This document shows positions 11,555-41,219 of a stretch of 64,000 bases of DNA, one piece after another. The position numbers and the translations under genes are program-made. The DNA is from Patescibacteria group bacterium (GTDB lineage: Bacteria > Patescibacteriota > Minisyncoccia > Phycocordibacterales > WO2-35-19). How positions within the stretch are numbered: position 1 is the stretch's first letter; each line of letters opens with the position of its first letter. The notes beneath the pieces were generated by a model. The model was given only the letters and a program-made list of their open reading frames with translations, did not search any database and was not told the origin of the DNA. The stretch is from contig JBBTSI010000003.1 in assembly GCA_038064735.1 (NCBI GenBank), positions 21,154 through 85,153 on the forward strand, given 5' to 3'.

Positions 11555-12373
11555 ATGGAAGATCTAACCAAGCATCAACTCATACTTATAGTTTTACTAA
11601 TCACTTTTGTGACTTCTATTGCCACAGGTATTATTACTTTCACCTTACTTTCTGAAGCACCGGTAGAAGTGACTCAAAATATAAATCGTGTAGTGGAAAA
11701 AACTATTGAACAAGTGGCGCCTACTGCTGTTCAGCCCCAAAAGGTAGTGACGACTGTGGTAGTCAATGAAGATGACAGAGTATTAGAAACTATCGCCAAG
11801 AATGAAAAATCAATAGTGAGACTCCGATCTCTTGCGGCTGATGGCTCCAAAATTGTTTCGGGTATGGGGGTAGTGGTTTCTGATAAAGGTGTGATCGTTG
11901 CTGATTCAAGAAGTTTCAACGGGGGTGTTCCTTCGGAAATCCTTTTTTCTGATGGTAAAACTTATCCCACCGGCAAAATTTTTACGGATAGTGCAAACGG
12001 GCTTACTTTCGTGAAAACCAGTGTTCCTCAGAATGATACTTCTCATTATGTATTTTATCCGGCAACTTTCGGTAATTCAGATGGGTTGAAAATAGGCCAG
12101 ACTTTGGTCACCATTAGTGGTTTAGAGTCAAACGCTGCTTCTATTGGTAGAGTGTTTCAGCTTAATTCTGGAGATGATAAAAAAACCGTAAATAATATTG
12201 TTTCTAATATAAAAATTTCAAAGAGCCATTTTGGCAGCCCGGCACTCAACCTTAGTGGAGAGGTGATAGGGTTGGAAGCTCCGTTTATCGAATCCGATAC
12301 TGAATATTCTTATATTCCAATAAATGTTATAAAATCGGCTATCACTAAAGCCTTAGAAGATTTATCCAAATAG
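11555..12373 (+). CDS. membrane-anchored trypsin-like (S1/HtrA-like) serine protease domain protein
   Basis: N-terminal TM; chymotrypsin-fold pattern GNSDG...SHFGSPALN..GEVIGL; start chosen at MEDLTK to avoid overlapping the upstream gene. Confidence 0.45.
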   Translation: MEDLTKHQLILIVLLITFVTSIATGIITFTLLSEAPVEVTQNINRVVEKTIEQVAPTAVQPQKVVTTVVVNEDDRVLETIAKNEKSIVRLRSLAADGSKIVSGMGVVVSDKGVIVADSRSFNGGVPSEILFSDGKTYPTGKIFTDSANGLTFVKTSVPQNDTSHYVFYPATFGNSDGLKIGQTLVTISGLESNAASIGRVFQLNSGDDKKTVNNIVSNIKISKSHFGSPALNLSGEVIGLEAPFIESDTEYSYIPINVIKSAITKALEDLSK

Positions 12374-34446: not shown

Positions 34447-35190
34447 ATGGAAAAGACAATGGACGGGGTATTACGTTGTAGTCGGTATTCGTTTGGGCCG
34501 AACAGGCTACATTATTGCGGGCCGGATGCCAATAAAGAATTTAAAGAGCTTATTGAAAAAGACGGGGATGATTTTGGCCTGTCACACCTTTTAAAGCAAT
34601 TCAAAACTCTTTTTCCTTACCTTCGGAAAATTGCCGAAGTGAATAATATAAAAGATCCGTTTGATGCAAAAGTAGTTGAAGCATATTGGCTCGGCAATGA
34701 ATTTTTGGAAAATATAGAAAAAAATACTTTGTATAATTTTTTGGTTTATGATTTGAAAGTGAAAGATAAGTTGAAAAGCAGAGAATTCCATTGGTTGGAA
34801 GAAAAAATAAAACAGGGCGCCGTACCCCATCACTCTTTTCATGTTTTCAATATTTGGGGGCAGGAAGGTCACAATGACTTGTTGACTGAGCTAGATAGGA
34901 TGGATGAATGCCGGATTTCTTCAGGTGTCGTCACCTCTATAAACGGCCCAGAAATCGTAGTTTCCACCGAACCTTTGATTTACACAGCTGGCAAATTTAC
35001 TCTCGGCCAAGCGGCCCCCAAGAGCCTAACGAGGCAACTAGAGGCCGAATATGATATTGAACAGATAAAACCTGGGCAGATAGTTTCTATACATTGGAGT
35101 GTACCTTGCGAGGTTATTACTCAAAAACAGGCTGAAACACTCAGAAAGTACACTTTAAAAAATATTGCTTTTGCTAATTTAAATTTGTAA
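34447..35190 (+). CDS. hypothetical protein, translationally coupled to the hydrogenase maturation protease (possible hydrogenase accessory factor)
   Basis: 247 aa; CSRYSFGPNRLHYCGP cysteine pair; stop overlaps the start of the next gene (TAATG). Confidence 0.4.
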   Translation: MEKTMDGVLRCSRYSFGPNRLHYCGPDANKEFKELIEKDGDDFGLSHLLKQFKTLFPYLRKIAEVNNIKDPFDAKVVEAYWLGNEFLENIEKNTLYNFLVYDLKVKDKLKSREFHWLEEKIKQGAVPHHSFHVFNIWGQEGHNDLLTELDRMDECRISSGVVTSINGPEIVVSTEPLIYTAGKFTLGQAAPKSLTRQLEAEYDIEQIKPGQIVSIHWSVPCEVITQKQAETLRKYTLKNIAFANLNL

Positions 35191-35564
35191 TGAAAAAAAT
35201 CTTTGTATTTGGAAATATGGATTTGGAAATGGATAATCTGCCATTACGGATTTTGTCACAGCTTGTCAAAAAGTTTCCAGGTATTGAATTTGTAGTGAAA
35301 GACCCAAACGAAGAATGGGAAGTGCTGGAAGAATTGGTTGTCTTGGATACAGCAGTCGGTATAAAAGAAGTGACAATTTTTGATAGTTTAGAAAAGTTTT
35401 CCAAACCGCCGAGAGTAGGGATGCATGATTTTGACGCTCTAACTAATCTGCGTTTTTTGTGGAAGCTTGGTAAAATAAAAAAAATAAAAATTATTGCGGT
35501 ACCTCAAAATCTAAAAGAGGATGAAGCAGTTTTGGAAGTAAGTAAAATTTTGGAGAAAATATAA
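35190..35564 (+). CDS. [NiFe] hydrogenase maturation endopeptidase (HycI/HyaD family)
   Basis: FVFGNMDLEMDNLPLRI (GNxxxxDDGxG-like) and MHDFDALTNL (His region). Confidence 0.65.
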   Translation: MKKIFVFGNMDLEMDNLPLRILSQLVKKFPGIEFVVKDPNEEWEVLEELVVLDTAVGIKEVTIFDSLEKFSKPPRVGMHDFDALTNLRFLWKLGKIKKIKIIAVPQNLKEDEAVLEVSKILEKI

Positions 35565-35577
35565 AAAGTTTGGGCGC

Positions 35578-35603
35578 CATCTTGCGACAGCGCCCTGTTT
35601 CAG
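35578..35603. terminator. bidirectional terminator
   Basis: gggcgc/gcgccc stem with T-rich flanks on both strands. Confidence 0.4.
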
Positions 35604-36040
35604 TCCTCATCTTTTTCCACAATAATTGAGTTGTGGATAAAGACTAAATCTTCTTTTCTTAAAATCAGTTTGTAAGGATTGATGGCGTTTTCGGCTTCAC
35701 CATCGCTGATCACTTTCACTATTCCATTATCGTCTATCATACAAACGATGGCATGTTTTACAGGAGTTGGGCCATCATGATTGTAACGCCAATAATTGAT
35801 GACTGACTCTCTAGAGAAATTATCCTTACGTTTAAATTCTAGACAGAAACGTTTGTAGTCTGTTACCGCATTCGGAAAACATTTTTCGAGTAGCAAAATC
35901 GGGGGTACATCATTTTCTTCGATGATCACTTCCATTCTTTCATAGGAACATTTATCAATTTTCCCTGCTTTCATTTTTTCTTCGGCACATGGCCTGAAAG
36001 CATAACGCAAAAAGATTTGCGGACCTGACAATAATTTCAT
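35600..36040 (-). CDS. hypothetical protein downstream of the hydrogenase large subunit
   Basis: 146 aa, Cys-containing, no recognisable domain. Confidence 0.35.
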   Translation of the reverse strand: MKLLSGPQIFLRYAFRPCAEEKMKAGKIDKCSYERMEVIIEENDVPPILLLEKCFPNAVTDYKRFCLEFKRKDNFSRESVINYWRYNHDGPTPVKHAIVCMIDDNGIVKVISDGEAENAINPYKLILRKEDLVFIHNSIIVEKDED

Positions 36041-36081: not shown

Positions 36082-37395
36082 TTATAACCATTCAACTTTG
36101 AGGAAGTGCGCGGCGCAAGACATACAAGGGTCATAAGCGCGGATAAGTTTTTCTATTTCAAAGACAATCTTGTCTTTGTCCAGCTGAGCTTCAGCGGAGT
36201 TGGACTGGTCCAAAAGATTTTGAACTAAGACAGCTACGTCACGCTCGATATTTATTTGATTTTGACCTGTCGGCACTATCACTTCGCCACCAGAGACTTT
36301 GCCATCTTCTCCTATGATTATTTTATGATAAAGAGTACCTCTAGGCGCTTCGATGACTCCAATGCCTACTGCTCCGGATTTTGCTTCAGCTTTGATTAAA
36401 GGCTCAGGAGTAAATTTGTTGTTTGAAAGTATATCTATGGATTCGTCTACACAATGCAACGTTTCAATCGCTTGAGCCAAGTTGTTATAAAAAATATCTG
36501 TGGAAGGGAAAAGATTCAAAACTTCAGATGCAGATTCTTTAGTCTTTGGATGGAGTTTATCTTTGGCTAAGTTGATGCGAGCCAAAGCACCAACCATATA
36601 ACCTTCACCTTCATAAGTGTAACCAACTGCCTGTGAATAAGGGATTACGGTCTTTTCAAGATGGTCGCGGAAATCTTTTTCTTCTATTTTTTGACCATCA
36701 CTTGCTCCAATAACACCTTGTATGTATCCGAAAGAATTTTCTGGTACTAATGCTATATATTTGGTTTTGCGATCAAAATGAAATGGTGCGTTTTTGAAAA
36801 CTTCTATAAGTCGCAATACTCCGGACCTGACGTTTTGAAGTTTTTGGATAGCTTCAGCAATACCAGCTTCATCGGGGAATTTGAGGAAACCGCCTATGAC
36901 TGGGTAAGTAGCGTGGACACTTCGGCCCGCGATGAGTGTAGCCAAAAAATTGCCGGCAGACTTTACCTCAAAACCGTCGTGCAAAAGTTGGTGCTGGTAC
37001 GGATCACTTTCATCAAAATCTAAAAACGCATCTTTGTTGAAAATATCCGGCATAGAAAATAGATACAAATGCAAAGCGTGGTCGCGAATCATAAGACCAT
37101 TCATCACAAGAGTTCGCAAAAGTTTGGTTTGTTCTGTTGGCTTTATGTCCAGAGCATTTTCAGAAGCTTCAATACTGCACATTATGTGAGAATTGGAACA
37201 GGTACCGCAGATACGGGCGAGATGTTGGGGGATAGCAACCAAGTCTTTGCCTTTCATGGCTTCGGTGAAAAAGCGTTTGTATTCGTCGGTAGCAAATTTT
37301 ATATCGGTGACTTTGCCGTCTTCTACTTTGAGCTTGAGCGAAGCATTACCTTCTATCTTGGTGATGTGCTCCATTGATAAATCAAAACTATGCAT
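36082..37395 (-). CDS. [NiFe] hydrogenase large (alpha) subunit, cytoplasmic group 3-like
   Basis: N-terminal RICGTCSNSH (RxCGxCxxxH) and C-terminal DPCMSCAAH (DPCxxCxxH) nickel-binding motifs. Confidence 0.85.
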   Translation of the reverse strand: MHSFDLSMEHITKIEGNASLKLKVEDGKVTDIKFATDEYKRFFTEAMKGKDLVAIPQHLARICGTCSNSHIMCSIEASENALDIKPTEQTKLLRTLVMNGLMIRDHALHLYLFSMPDIFNKDAFLDFDESDPYQHQLLHDGFEVKSAGNFLATLIAGRSVHATYPVIGGFLKFPDEAGIAEAIQKLQNVRSGVLRLIEVFKNAPFHFDRKTKYIALVPENSFGYIQGVIGASDGQKIEEKDFRDHLEKTVIPYSQAVGYTYEGEGYMVGALARINLAKDKLHPKTKESASEVLNLFPSTDIFYNNLAQAIETLHCVDESIDILSNNKFTPEPLIKAEAKSGAVGIGVIEAPRGTLYHKIIIGEDGKVSGGEVIVPTGQNQINIERDVAVLVQNLLDQSNSAEAQLDKDKIVFEIEKLIRAYDPCMSCAAHFLKVEWL

Positions 37396-37876: not shown

Positions 37877-37900
37877 ATTTTTATTGTATCACGATTAAAT

Positions 37901-38554
37901 TTAATCAAAAGTGTCAAAGATGCCCTTTGACACTATCCTTTTGTAAAGTTTTGTGTTTTCATTTATAAAATTTTTTGTGTTGCCAAATATTTCAGTTAAG
38001 AATTGTTTATGAATTATTTTATTTTTTCTATTGCTTATAAAATCAACATAGCTACTCCATTTGTATTTTTCAGGTTTATCGATAAAACCATCTTTAATTG
38101 GATTCATATGTATATAAGAAGAAATCAGCATAAGTTGCGGATTTGTTTCGATTTGGACAGATTTAAATTGATCTTGGAAAACATGGCCAACTCTTTTGTA
38201 TTTAAGATTTATGTATTTTGCAAAACTGGTAAATACTCTGGACATAAGTTTTGAAATTGATTCATCACCGCACTGCTCTATCAATAGGTGAATATGGTTT
38301 GGCATTAAACAAAAAGCATGAAGTTTAAAATTTTCTGGTTTTAAACTAGTGATCCTTATCCTTGATTTAGGGGATTTGGTTATTTCGCATTCATTCAAAT
38401 CTTTAATATCAAATCCAAGACCTAATCCTAATCTAAAAAGAAAAGTTCTGTAATCTTGTTCATCTCTGAATATTATTTCTTTATTATCACCACGATTATA
38501 GATGTGGTGAATAGAATCTTTGGTGAAATTTTTATAATCTCTATTTCTTCCCAT
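37901..38554 (-). CDS. Y1 HUH transposase, IS200/RAYT-like
   Basis: HUH motif CLMPNHIHLLIE and catalytic-Tyr region SSYIHMNPIKDG; start at ATG 38554 (MGRNRD) with TGTGGTATAAT 7 nt upstream. Confidence 0.7.
   Translation of the reverse strand: MGRNRDYKNFTKDSIHHIYNRGDNKEIIFRDEQDYRTFLFRLGLGLGFDIKDLNECEITKSPKSRIRITSLKPENFKLHAFCLMPNHIHLLIEQCGDESISKLMSRVFTSFAKYINLKYKRVGHVFQDQFKSVQIETNPQLMLISSYIHMNPIKDGFIDKPEKYKWSSYVDFISNRKNKIIHKQFLTEIFGNTKNFINENTKLYKRIVSKGIFDTFD
37911..37933. repeat. 23-nt perfect palindrome GTGTCAAAGATGCCCTTTGACAC (REP-like), copy a
   Basis: Within the 3' codons of the transposase gene and 35 nt upstream of the hydrogenase small-subunit ATG. Confidence 0.8.
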
Positions 38555-38577
38555 ATTAAAATTATACCACAAGTAAA

Positions 38578-38600
38578 ATGTCAAAGGGCATCTTTGACAT
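38578..38600. repeat. 23-nt perfect palindrome ATGTCAAAGGGCATCTTTGACAT (REP-like), copy b, centre inverted
   Basis: Between the hypothetical gene stop and the transposase start. Confidence 0.8.
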
Positions 38601-38611
38601 GTCGAAGAGTT

Positions 38612-39634
38612 CTAAGACTCAGAAGATTTGTTTTCGGTGTTTGTGTTTGGTTCAGTTTCAGTTTTTTCTTTTTCAAGGTTTTCGTGAAGCTCTTTGCCCG
38701 CTTCTTCTCCGATTTCTTTTAAATCATTTACATACCCAAGAGCTCTTTTTCTTTGTTCTGGGTGTTTGACTATGCTTCCGATCATTTTATCTTTCAAATA
38801 TCTTTTTTGGTCTTCTGTTTGTGTACTTGTTTCTACAGTTATATCTGAATAATGTTTACTGGTAGGTAGTCTGCTTTTTATTGTGGAAATTTTCTTATTA
38901 TCTGGATGTTCCTTTGTTCCAATCAAAATTTCTTTTATAGCTTGTTGAAAACCGTAAATTTTAGGATTTTTATCTTTTAATATTCTTGAAAGAAATCTCA
39001 TTGTGTTTTGAAGACTGTTGCTACATGAAAGATAAACATCATCAATTTTACTCACATGTTTTCCATTAAATTCAAAAAATCGTTTTTTAAAAGTAGCTTC
39101 TTCTTTTTCGTTTGGCCAACGTACATTGTCTGCAATGCTACCCTCATCAAATACCATTATTACTGGATTATCCTTATCAATTCTTTGTCCAATATAATCA
39201 AGAGCTTCTGGGATATCTCGTGCTTCTTGTTTAAGAATTTCTTTTAGATTTTGGTCTTTTGTCTTTTTGATTTCTGTTTTATTAACGGGTTCATAATTTG
39301 TCCACCATAGACGATGATTTTTAGGAACTATTCTGTAAAATCTAGGGTTTTCTTCTTCGGTGTAAGCATTTTTCCAAGTTTCCTTTAAAACATAACCATA
39401 AGGAATGGCACCAGTTTCGGTTAAAAAAATATAATCTGGTTGTATTTCATCGTGCCATTGTTTTACAACTCTTTCCGCCCAATTTTTTATTTTTTCAATT
39501 TGTTCTGGAGCAAGTTGTTCTTTCCACCCTTTTTCTATATCCATTTCTGGCACTTTCTTTTCTTCAGAAATTTTGTTTTCTGAATTTTCAGGGGAGATAT
39601 CTGGTATTTTTGGTTCATTTTGAAAACCTTCCAT
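38612..39634 (-). CDS. hypothetical protein (acidic, Lys/Glu-rich termini)
   Basis: 340 aa, no recognisable domain; bracketed by REP-like palindromes. Confidence 0.5.
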   Translation of the reverse strand: MEGFQNEPKIPDISPENSENKISEEKKVPEMDIEKGWKEQLAPEQIEKIKNWAERVVKQWHDEIQPDYIFLTETGAIPYGYVLKETWKNAYTEEENPRFYRIVPKNHRLWWTNYEPVNKTEIKKTKDQNLKEILKQEARDIPEALDYIGQRIDKDNPVIMVFDEGSIADNVRWPNEKEEATFKKRFFEFNGKHVSKIDDVYLSCSNSLQNTMRFLSRILKDKNPKIYGFQQAIKEILIGTKEHPDNKKISTIKSRLPTSKHYSDITVETSTQTEDQKRYLKDKMIGSIVKHPEQRKRALGYVNDLKEIGEEAGKELHENLEKEKTETEPNTNTENKSSES

Positions 39635-39672
39635 AAATATATATTAACACAAGTATTCCATTATCTTAACAA

Positions 39673-39695
39673 ATGTCAAAGATGCCCTTTGACAT
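39673..39695. repeat. 23-nt perfect palindrome ATGTCAAAGATGCCCTTTGACAT (REP-like), copy c
   Basis: 38 nt upstream of the 38612..39634 gene start. Confidence 0.8.
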
Positions 39696-39746
39696 GGTAT
39701 TGGGGATTAGGAGAGATTATTTAATAGAAGATGATATAATAAATCT

Positions 39747-41219
39747 ATGTCGGAGAATTTAAATAATGAAATATTTACCATAGGCATCGGTGGGGCGGCT
39801 GGAGAGGGTGTCAAATATGTAGGCAATAACATCGGATTACTTTTACGTGATTTGGGTTTTCAAATTTATCTATCATTGGATTATCCATCACTCATTCGGG
39901 GTGGGCACAATTTCGTCAGATTGAGTGCTAGTGTGGATAAGATTTGGAATGATCACGCCAAGTTGGATATTTTGATATGTTTAAATGAAAAAACTGCGGA
40001 AATTCATAAAAGTGAGCTCAAAGAAGGTGCATGGGTACTCGAGGGTTTAAATAATGAAGAAATTTTGGGTAAAGTCAGAGAATTTTTGAGTACCAAAGGA
40101 TTAGCCGACTTCGCTTCAGGCTCCGTCGCGCCGAAGGGTGAACTAATTGATGGTAATACCGCTTTTGCCAAAGGTTTGCAGATGGCAGGTTTGGATTTTT
40201 ATTTTGCTTATCCTATGACACCATCGACTTCTATTTTGCATTATCTCGCCAGCAAGCAAACTAAAGAAGGACTTAAGGTTATTCAGCCAGAAAATGAAAT
40301 CGCTGTCATCAATATGGCGCTCGGTAGTGTTTATACTGGCAAAAGAGTGGCAGTAGGGACGGCGACTGGCGGTTTTGCTTTGATGCAGGAAGCTTTTAGT
40401 TTCAGTGGTATGGCTGAACTTCCACTTGTGTTAGCTGTGGTGCAAAGGCAAGGGCCAGCGACTGGTGTACCGACGAGAAGTTCCCAATCAGATTTGCGTT
40501 TTGTGATCCATGCTGGTCATGGAGAATTTCCAAGAATTGTTTTAGCACCAGGAGATCCAGAGGAATGTTTTAAAGCAGGAATAGAAGCAATGGATTTAGC
40601 TTGGAAATTTAAATCACCAGTTATTGTTTTGCTTGATAAAGCTTTGTCGGAACACATAATGACTGTGGACATTGAAAGATTGACCCAGCTTTCGCTAAAA
40701 GCTACGGCGGGCGAAGAAAATGCAAATATAATTTTTCCTGGTACTCCAGAAAAGGTAGTAAAAGTTACTAGTTATGAACACGATGAAGAAGGTATCACTG
40801 TTGATAAACCCGAAGATGTTAAGACAGCGATGGATAGGAGGTTTGCTAAGGGAGAGAAGATCAAGGAAGAAATGAATAACAGAGAAACTATCAAAATATA
40901 TGGAGATACGTCAAGCAAAAATACAATTGTGTTTTTTGGTTCTAGCAAGAGTCCGATACTTGAAGCGGCGAAACTTTTAGAAAAAAATATTAAATTGGTT
41001 CAAATTTTGTGGCTTGAACCGTTTGATTCAGAGAAACTTAAGAAAGAATTTGAGGGAATGAATAAAATAATTTGTGTGGAGGCCAATCACAGTGGGCAAT
41101 TAGCAAGTTTAATCAGAGAGAGGACAGGTATTGAAGTTACTGATAAAATTTTGAGATATGATTCATTACCATTTGAACCGGAAGAACTCGCTCTGCAAAT
41201 TAATTCAATTTTAAAATAA
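39747..41219 (+). CDS. korA: 2-oxoacid:ferredoxin oxidoreductase, fused gamma+alpha subunit
   Basis: N-terminal gamma-like GGAAGEGVKYVGNNIG and a POR/KOR alpha core. Confidence 0.8.
   Translation: MSENLNNEIFTIGIGGAAGEGVKYVGNNIGLLLRDLGFQIYLSLDYPSLIRGGHNFVRLSASVDKIWNDHAKLDILICLNEKTAEIHKSELKEGAWVLEGLNNEEILGKVREFLSTKGLADFASGSVAPKGELIDGNTAFAKGLQMAGLDFYFAYPMTPSTSILHYLASKQTKEGLKVIQPENEIAVINMALGSVYTGKRVAVGTATGGFALMQEAFSFSGMAELPLVLAVVQRQGPATGVPTRSSQSDLRFVIHAGHGEFPRIVLAPGDPEECFKAGIEAMDLAWKFKSPVIVLLDKALSEHIMTVDIERLTQLSLKATAGEENANIIFPGTPEKVVKVTSYEHDEEGITVDKPEDVKTAMDRRFAKGEKIKEEMNNRETIKIYGDTSSKNTIVFFGSSKSPILEAAKLLEKNIKLVQILWLEPFDSEKLKKEFEGMNKIICVEANHSGQLASLIRERTGIEVTDKILRYDSLPFEPEELALQINSILK

Follow-up and report, generated by a model that had tools for sequence, protein, structure and literature searches.

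How repetitive extragenic palindromic (REP) sequences spread, and why the REP-associated tyrosine transposases (RAYTs) are retained, is a long-standing open question (PMC8266576, PMC3337134). In the REPtron of Escherichia coli (TnpA_REP/RAYT with its REPs and bacterial interspersed mosaic elements, BIMEs; structure 4ER8; Ton-Hoang 2012, PMC3333891; Messing 2012, PMC3479197), the enzyme carries HUH and Tyr motifs, and a bulged, GTAG-tagged palindrome both flanks its gene directly and is dispersed through the genome in ~600 copies. TnpA_REP cleaves and rejoins single-stranded REPs; where these are short and perfect, the bases of the loop are critical (PMC8266576). Here we examine a locus of this kind at positions 37901-39695 of a 64-kb stretch of DNA from a Patescibacteria group bacterium (hereafter the window), where a Y1 HUH transposase gene and three short perfect hairpins lie between a [NiFe] hydrogenase operon and genes of pyruvate oxidoreductase (POR).

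Several other described systems bear on this locus. The Group 3 REPtrons of Stenotrophomonas, Marinomonas and Pseudomonas (Corneloup 2021, PMC8266576) and the REPIN (REP doublet forming hairpin)-RAYT systems (Bertels & Rainey 2011, PMC3116915, PMC3337134) have short perfect palindromes whose loop bases are important, and each RAYT has its own repeat type. The repeats of both carry a GTAG tag, lie outside genes and number in the hundreds. Insertion sequences of the IS200 type (IS200/IS605, with tnpA only) are ~700-bp units with one Y1 gene, bounding hairpins and a single-stranded DNA mechanism; their left and right ends differ, they have a target tetranucleotide, and a genome contains several complete copies. 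Finally, in-frame palindromic repeats are tolerated in protein-coding genes of the reduced genome of Rickettsia. These Rickettsia palindromic elements (RPEs) are insertions of 100-150 bp and are not known to be associated with a transposase.

With the E. coli REPtron the present locus shares the HUH and Tyr motifs and a palindrome that directly flanks the gene and, in relatives, is dispersed in the genome; among the sampled loci, no assembly has more than one such gene. However, the two proteins are only distantly similar (E 0.0095), the palindrome is perfect, 23 nt long and devoid of a bulge or GTAG tag, it occurs in 1-12 copies that are mostly intragenic, and one copy encodes the 3' end of the RAYT gene itself. 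Some inverted doublets (loci L008, L036, L043 and L141; L numbers denote related loci from other contigs) add to the likeness with Group 3 REPtrons and REPIN-RAYT systems, whereas the repeats described here are untagged, mainly singlets and in frame within housekeeping genes, and switch loop class between genomes at orthologous positions. Unlike IS200, the unit has identical ends and is present at most once per assembly sampled; unlike RPEs, the hairpin element measures only 21-24 nt, sometimes replaces codons at constant length and is linked to a RAYT. Since the family lacks several hallmarks of classical REPs (a tag, a position outside genes, copies in large number), we regard the locus as a variant of the REP/RAYT systems and not as a plain member: it is a genuine system of this type, atypical in being low-copy, untagged and largely intragenic. 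The initial annotation of the window, which had called it REPtron-like, is borne out by the HUH and Tyr motifs, the RAYT-like score, the occurrence of the palindrome elsewhere, and distant RAYTs with palindromes of their own.

The explanation we favour, and consider probable, is that 37901-39695 is an insertion with a ~700-bp REP/RAYT-type core (37901-38600), that its hairpin belongs to a family found across Patescibacteria, and that the RAYT copies or converts these hairpins. The core unit comprises a hairpin, a promoter of its own, the RAYT-type Y1 HUH gene and a second hairpin, with the open reading frame ORF340 and a third hairpin lying beside it. The window contains three exact copies of TGTCAAAG-N5-CTTTGACA, which as 23-mers read RTGTCAAAG-ATGCC-CTTTGACAY with a 9-bp stem and a 5-nt loop; they stand where the initial annotation had placed them (Table 1), and bracket a RAYT/IS200-like transposase and an anonymous 340-aa ORF as it had described. 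Copies 1 and 3 have the loop ATGCC, whereas copy 2 has GGCAT, the reverse complement; the 6-nt centre ATGCCC reported before counts the first C of the stem twice, and a pattern with a 6-nt loop matches nothing. All three copies fold as DNA hairpins (dG -7.7 to -9.5 kcal/mol, z -4.6 to -7.6), and no known RNA family in Rfam matches them. Chance would yield 0.49 matches with <=3 mismatches in the 64-kb window; five were observed, a number reached in 0 of 100 shuffles. Copy 2 lies 11 nt past the ORF340 stop and copy 3 lies 51 nt upstream of POR-alpha. Each copy precedes a start codon on the minus strand, as had been claimed, at distances that need correction from 24-38 nt to 34 (hydD), 23 (RAYT) and 38 nt (ORF340).

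The 217-aa transposase matches PF01797 (Y1_Tnp) with E 9e-11, above the family cutoff. In alignment with the E. coli TnpA_REP (4ER8) the HUH motif (NHIHLL vs EHMHCI) and the Tyr motif (SYIHMNP vs DYIYINP) are both present. Between RAYT and IS200, the assignment tends to the former: REP_Tyr_transpos (NF047646) is the sole NCBIfam match, albeit with a score of 67.9 bits where the cutoff is 80, and no IS200 model in NCBIfam matches at E<=0.01. The 588 homologues have N-termini beginning MGNRDYKNF, which identifies the ATG at 38554 as the true start; the TTG start at 38584 listed by program for a longer ORF falls inside hairpin 2. At the opposite end of the gene, the final codons (VSKGIFDT) are encoded by hairpin 1.

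That the hairpin-RAYT-hairpin unit is mobile is indicated by its relatives. When the window is aligned with L068 and L061, whose RAYTs are 83-85% identical, mean column identity across the unit is 86%, and the limits of homology are, on the right, precisely the outer edge of the hairpin and, on the left, a point ~10 nt beyond the hairpin, at the stop codon. The -10 box of the RAYT gene, TGGTATAAT, lies inside this homologous unit and is conserved in both relatives. In L068 the unit sits in a type IV pilus cluster, so the ~700-bp unit has moved. The same hairpin-flanked layout recurs in L061, L068, L031, L050, L028/L013, L009/L069, L128, L139, L146, L173, L212 and L229.

The site itself is variable. 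In the syntenic locus L104 (HydD 84% identical), POR-alpha is likewise the divergent neighbour of hydD, and the 33 nt between them contain no hairpin, RAYT or ORF340. At the corresponding site L229 carries a different, 115-aa ORF followed by hairpin-RAYT-hairpin, L105 carries a radical-SAM gene and a methyltransferase gene, and L106 (5160-5990) carries a different Y1 transposase/RAYT of 195 aa with GC-rich flanking palindromes (GAGGCCTCGCC..., type GAGGCCTCGCCTCGAGGCGAGGCCTC); in L061 the site has a RAYT adjoining hydD. L104 is thus an empty site, and given the varied content elsewhere the segment 37901-39695 has been inserted at a variable intergenic hotspot between POR-alpha and hydD, which is a recurrent landing place. 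The GC content there, 0.314, is the minimum of the window. A phage origin was considered and rejected: the 21-mer occurs in no viral contig, and there is only a weak PHROG match.

This synteny also settles the fate of the hydrogenase. The initial annotation had supposed that diaphorase subunits were displaced by the insertion, which is refuted: beta/gamma genes are absent next to hydDA in the window, in the empty-site locus L104, and in L105, L106 and L229. The arrangement agrees with the published 'hyd2' type of the candidate phyla radiation (CPR), group 3b-related, in which the small subunit is truncated to ~164 aa and proximal beta/gamma genes are lacking (Jaffe et al. 2020, PMC7304191). 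With this type the window shares the large and the truncated small subunit, and we found no difference from it; it departs from the four-subunit group 3b [NiFe] hydrogenase, which has adjacent beta/gamma (diaphorase) genes. The observation that only alpha and delta subunits are encoded was correct and describes the two-subunit hyd2 type, and a false lead is thereby removed from the annotation of the window: the insertion did not truncate the hydrogenase.

Beyond the window, the exact 21-mer was found in 112 copies on 99 stretches from 53 assemblies of the species-representative collection (assemblies counted by whole-genome shotgun prefix), where chance alone would give ~0.3 matches in 596 Gb. 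The palindrome is therefore not unique to this locus: relatives hold 1-12 exact copies per assembly (maximum 12). The 53 assemblies are labelled as Patescibacteria lineages, Saccharibacteria or 'bacterium', except for an Omnitrophota-labelled metagenome-assembled genome (MAG) and Insolitispirillum. Its members share an 8-bp stem that does not vary (TGTCAAAG/CTTTGACA) and R..Y flanks, and their loops of 5 nt fall into discrete classes. R at -1 (86%, 0.41 bit) and Y at +1 (85%, 0.44 bit) prevail whether or not the two bases pair. Near-copies are scarce (115 exact vs 4 with one mismatch). Among the papers searched, none contains the 21-mer or links RAYT/REPIN to CPR; those listed that mention both RAYT and Patescibacteria are unrelated studies of gut, rumen or soil. 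Within 16.6 kb the syntenic L229 bears five exact copies, including copies in the POR-alpha and Dus slots that are empty in the window, so that occupancy turns over even between close relatives; this window is hairpin-poor. In Insolitispirillum peregrinum, a GC-rich alphaproteobacterium, the exact 23-mer lies within a 905-aa ORF (L042 6361) and may be a chance match or a transfer. Compensatory stem variants (TGTCAAGG...CCTTGACA) stand directly beside canonical copies at L054 5640-5687, L078 152-197 and L018 6192-6233. Contig boundaries coincide exactly with a hairpin at the end of L061 and at the starts of L065 and L151; the hairpin may thus break short-read assemblies and could hide RAYT units in MAGs.

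A hairpin scan of metagenome contigs that allowed any loop sequence returned at least 120 loci. Among the matches listed, ATGCC/GGCAT and ACCGT/ACGGT account for 21 copies each, AGACA/TGTCT for 17, AGCCT/AGGCT for 11, GGCAC/GTGCC and AGACT/AGTCT for 7 each and CCCGC/GCGGG for 4, followed by a tail of rarer loops, mostly singletons. Copies from one contig have a class in common. The loop class is uniform at 9 of 10 multi-copy loci, and same-contig pairs match in 13 of 14 cases vs 8.7% expected (p 2e-13); at the genome loci, extra copies belong to the ascertained class 13 times and to another class twice (background 16%, p 3e-9). Examples independent of RAYT-flanking pairs are L166, with two intragenic copies encoding TV, and L173, where a dispersed intragenic copy has the class of those flanking the RAYT. 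Loop orientation flips between orthologous copies and shows no significant sense-strand bias (37 vs 30). Most AGCCT/AGGCT copies have conserved flanks and nested repeats such as GTCAAAGAGGCTTAATGAGGCTGTCAAAGAGCCTCTTTGACAACGTCAAATGGGC (L112 7600-7700), a setting also seen at L137, L155, L206, L222 and L224 and, on the other strand, at L145/L171/L187/L201; Rfam has no match for these nested repeats, and they may constitute a separate repeat array in another group of organisms.

More than half of the ATGCC-class copies (73/133, 55%) are located >=15 codons within an ORF of >=150 aa, and 67 of these 73 are read in the frame (M/V)SK-MP/GI-FD(T/I/M) (p 4e-14 against both open frames being used equally). 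The host genes, named by reading translations without a family-library scan, include IleRS, LeuRS, ThrRS, ArgRS, CysRS, RecG, LigA, PolA, UvrA and UvrC, and further Tgt, TatD, RNase R, TsaD, Dus, MiaA and POR-alpha. One and the same orthologous slot bears different loops in different genomes, as six slots illustrate: the loop residues are TV, AG, RH, GI or MP in a methyltransferase-like gene ('AGWK'), SL, GI or RL in IleRS ('WPK'), RH, TV, MP or GI in an RNase H-like gene, RH, CL, GT or GI in an RT-like gene, TV or GI in ThrRS, and GI or ET in RecG. Hairpin-free orthologues have gaps of 5-16 codons in Dus, at RecG site B and in POR-alpha; they are of equal length at RecG site A, in the RT-like gene (LDKNIKDP in the window) and in MiaA (LSKGIFDT vs LQNKISKI in the window). 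In the Dus gene of L229 (14370-14420), a 16-codon insertion relative to that of the window reads KGIFKMPRSQKMPFG and looks like a decaying inverted hairpin doublet within coding sequence.

The hairpin is tied to the transposase in several ways. Exact hairpins bracket a RAYT in 7 of the 53 assemblies, with RAYT identity down to 38%. The C-termini of 120 RAYT homologues read VSK-xx-FD, where xx is GI, MP, GT, VP, TV, AA, SD or GA (more distant homologues end in MSRGVLD and similar), and over-called N-termini show upstream the same xx type as at the C-terminus; the loop type tracks the RAYT subclade at both ends. A RAYT only 33% identical to that of the window (L025 5926-6746) is flanked by three copies of another palindrome, TGCCAACGTC-C-GACGTTGGCA; RAYT types thus each have a repeat type of their own. 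The L025 RAYT is also once interrupted by a palindrome of the family TGCCAACGTC-C/G-GACGTTGGCA, and its assembly contains the TGTCAAAG hairpin as well, i.e. two systems together.

By analogy with the TnpA_REP enzymes, the RAYT would bind the folded single-stranded hairpin and cut and rejoin DNA at the hairpin foot, and this cutting and rejoining would copy or convert hairpins within one genome. Such conversion would explain why a contig has one loop class while another class occupies the orthologous sites elsewhere. The same analogy would make the RAYT the agent, and its activity the way in which loops stay uniform. Locally, the hairpins may in addition terminate transcription weakly, or insulate ORF340, the RAYT gene and the hydrogenase operon from one another.

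A number of observations weigh against this explanation. The NCBIfam score of the transposase is under its cutoff, and a GTAG-like guide motif is missing: flank positions other than -1 and +1 carry <=0.13 bit, and no GTAG-like tag or GTAG/CGTC tetranucleotide stands beside the palindrome. Only 7 of the 53 hairpin-bearing assemblies have a RAYT next to a copy, and on an 813-kb contig none of the four copies (three exact, one with a single mismatch) adjoins a RAYT, so that many hairpins may endure where their cognate enzyme is missing. Outside the locus there are no dispersed copies in the 64-kb window, where the next best matches, at 12216 and 59602, have three and two mismatches. RAYTs that are 83-88% identical pair with different loops, which leaves recognition of the loop by the protein unproven. 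Loop orientation has no replication-strand bias relative to GC skew (26/19 vs 17/24, p 0.19). Finally, several intragenic copies replace eight codons at unchanged length, and simple insertion does not account for those.

Three other explanations were weighed. The 700-bp hairpin-tnpA-hairpin unit could be an autonomous IS200-like insertion sequence, with solo hairpins as its footprints or miniature derivatives. It has the size of IS200 and its own promoter, it occurs in differing gene contexts, and the site in L106 was entered by another RAYT with different hairpins; all the same, we think this unlikely, since no assembly has more than one unit in the loci sampled, the ends are an identical palindrome instead of distinct left and right ends, IS200 models in NCBIfam do not match, and solo hairpins far exceed units and recur at orthologous positions across species. 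It is less likely again that hairpins act mainly at the level of RNA or transcription, as intrinsic terminators or mRNA stabilisers in the manner of E. coli REPs; indeed, of the three alternatives we give this one the least credit. In a terminator scan, copy 1 resembles a terminator whichever strand is read, and copy 2, which directly follows the ORF340 stop, does so on the minus strand; the stability of the hairpins would suit such a role; a local insulating effect of these two copies is possible. However, the T-tracts are weak, termination would be harmful to the 55% of family copies that lie within ORFs, and on the sense strand the loop occurs equally in either orientation.

The remaining alternative, scarcely more credible than a role in RNA, takes the palindromes as sites of a host DNA-binding protein (operator or parS-like) that regulates the promoters of the hydrogenase, RAYT and ORF340. 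The initial annotation had proposed an operator or promoter role, and the TGnTAnAAT-like -10 boxes it noted between palindromes and genes are present. Dyad symmetry, R..Y flanks independent of pairing, a low copy number with sites conserved in place inside genes, as for parS, and the position of every window copy upstream of a -10 box are what such a protein would lead one to expect, as is one TTGACA-16-AATACT match, at copy 3 only and toward ORF340. Against this, the distance from the hairpin TTGACA to the four -10 boxes varies (23, 12, 27 and ~40 nt), promoter-like sites are not enriched (8 observed vs 10.9 expected from shuffles), and over half of the family copies are intragenic, so that the proposed role is not supported; the TTGACA was likewise rejected as a -35 box on account of these spacings and the single consensus-like match. 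Moreover, a protein binding half-sites would not impose an asymmetric 5-nt centre that is uniform per contig and differs among genomes, hairpin copies are tightly linked to RAYT genes, and the empty-site relative serves hydD and POR-alpha from a 33-nt region without a hairpin. In that region (L104 5968-6000) two overlapping divergent TGnTAnAAT-type boxes are found. At their distance from the ATG, the boxes of all four window genes leave no room for a Shine-Dalgarno sequence, which suggests that the transcripts of hydD, RAYT, ORF340 and POR-alpha would be leaderless.

Returning to the RAYT as the agent that copies or converts hairpins, a stronger version is conceivable, which we put forward tentatively and regard as doubtful. 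The hairpins might be long-lived in-frame slots in essential genes (such as those for IleRS, ThrRS, RecG and an rRNA-methyltransferase-like and an RNase H-like protein), and the RAYT-type HUH enzyme, which would cut and rejoin the hairpins at their foot, might overwrite the 5-nt loops in concert genome-wide, i.e. by cassette exchange. If so, a new RAYT/loop type taking over would rewrite two codons in many housekeeping proteins, and REPs would have a previously undescribed mode of propagation that requires no net insertion. In either version, a fixed stem with discrete loop classes that are uniform per contig and swapped at orthologous sites between genomes amounts to a natural experiment, and this pattern, together with codon replacement at constant length, constrains any proposed REP mechanism. 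The system is directly testable with short oligonucleotides and one small enzyme. It also shows that the streamlined genomes of Patescibacteria, among them many ultra-small groundwater bacteria that carry the hairpin, tolerate or use a mobile-element-linked hairpin within essential genes.

Table 1. Positions of the hairpins, genes and -10 boxes in and around the inserted block (numbering of the window)
Feature	Position	Strand	Remarks
hydA, [NiFe] hydrogenase large subunit, group 3b-related	36082..37395	-	family matches
hydD, truncated [NiFe] hydrogenase small subunit, 162 aa	37388..37876	-	PF01058
Extended -10 box of hydD, TGATACAAT	37883-37891	-	6 nt before ATG
RAYT-like Y1 HUH transposase, 217 aa	37901..38554	-	PF01797; NF047646; 4ER8 alignment
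Hairpin copy 1, GTGTCAAAG-ATGCC-CTTTGACAC	37911..37933		core 37912-37932, flanks G..C; last RAYT codons, 34 nt upstream of hydD start
Extended -10 box of RAYT gene, TGGTATAAT	38561..38569	-	6 nt before ATG
Hairpin copy 2, ATGTCAAAG-GGCAT-CTTTGACAT, loop inverted	38578..38600		core 38579-38599, flanks A..T; outer edge of RAYT unit
ORF340, orphan protein, 340 aa	38612..39634	-	weak phosphoribosyltransferase-like fold
Extended -10 box of ORF340, TGTTAATAT	39641-39649	-	6 nt before ATG
Hairpin copy 3, ATGTCAAAG-ATGCC-CTTTGACAT	39673..39695		core 39674-39694, flanks A..T; outer limit of inserted block
Extended -10 box of POR-alpha, TGATATAAT	39732-39740	+	6 nt before ATG
POR/OFOR alpha subunit with fused gamma-like N-terminal domain	39747..41219	+	family matches

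ORF340 was considered as a component of the element and rejected. It matches no Pfam or NCBIfam family, and its homologues number only 19. Of these, two were examined for their context, which in neither case is related to RAYT or contains a match to the hairpin stem; L229 has the other, 115-aa ORF in place of ORF340. ORF340 is a neighbour or cargo, outside the RAYT family unit.

In the window (34447-36040), as well as in L104 and L229, the hydrogenase is followed by DUF6390 and a pair of small ORFs of 124 and 146 aa that have no annotation; L105 and L106 keep only the small ORFs. These genes may be accessory or maturation genes of hyd2.

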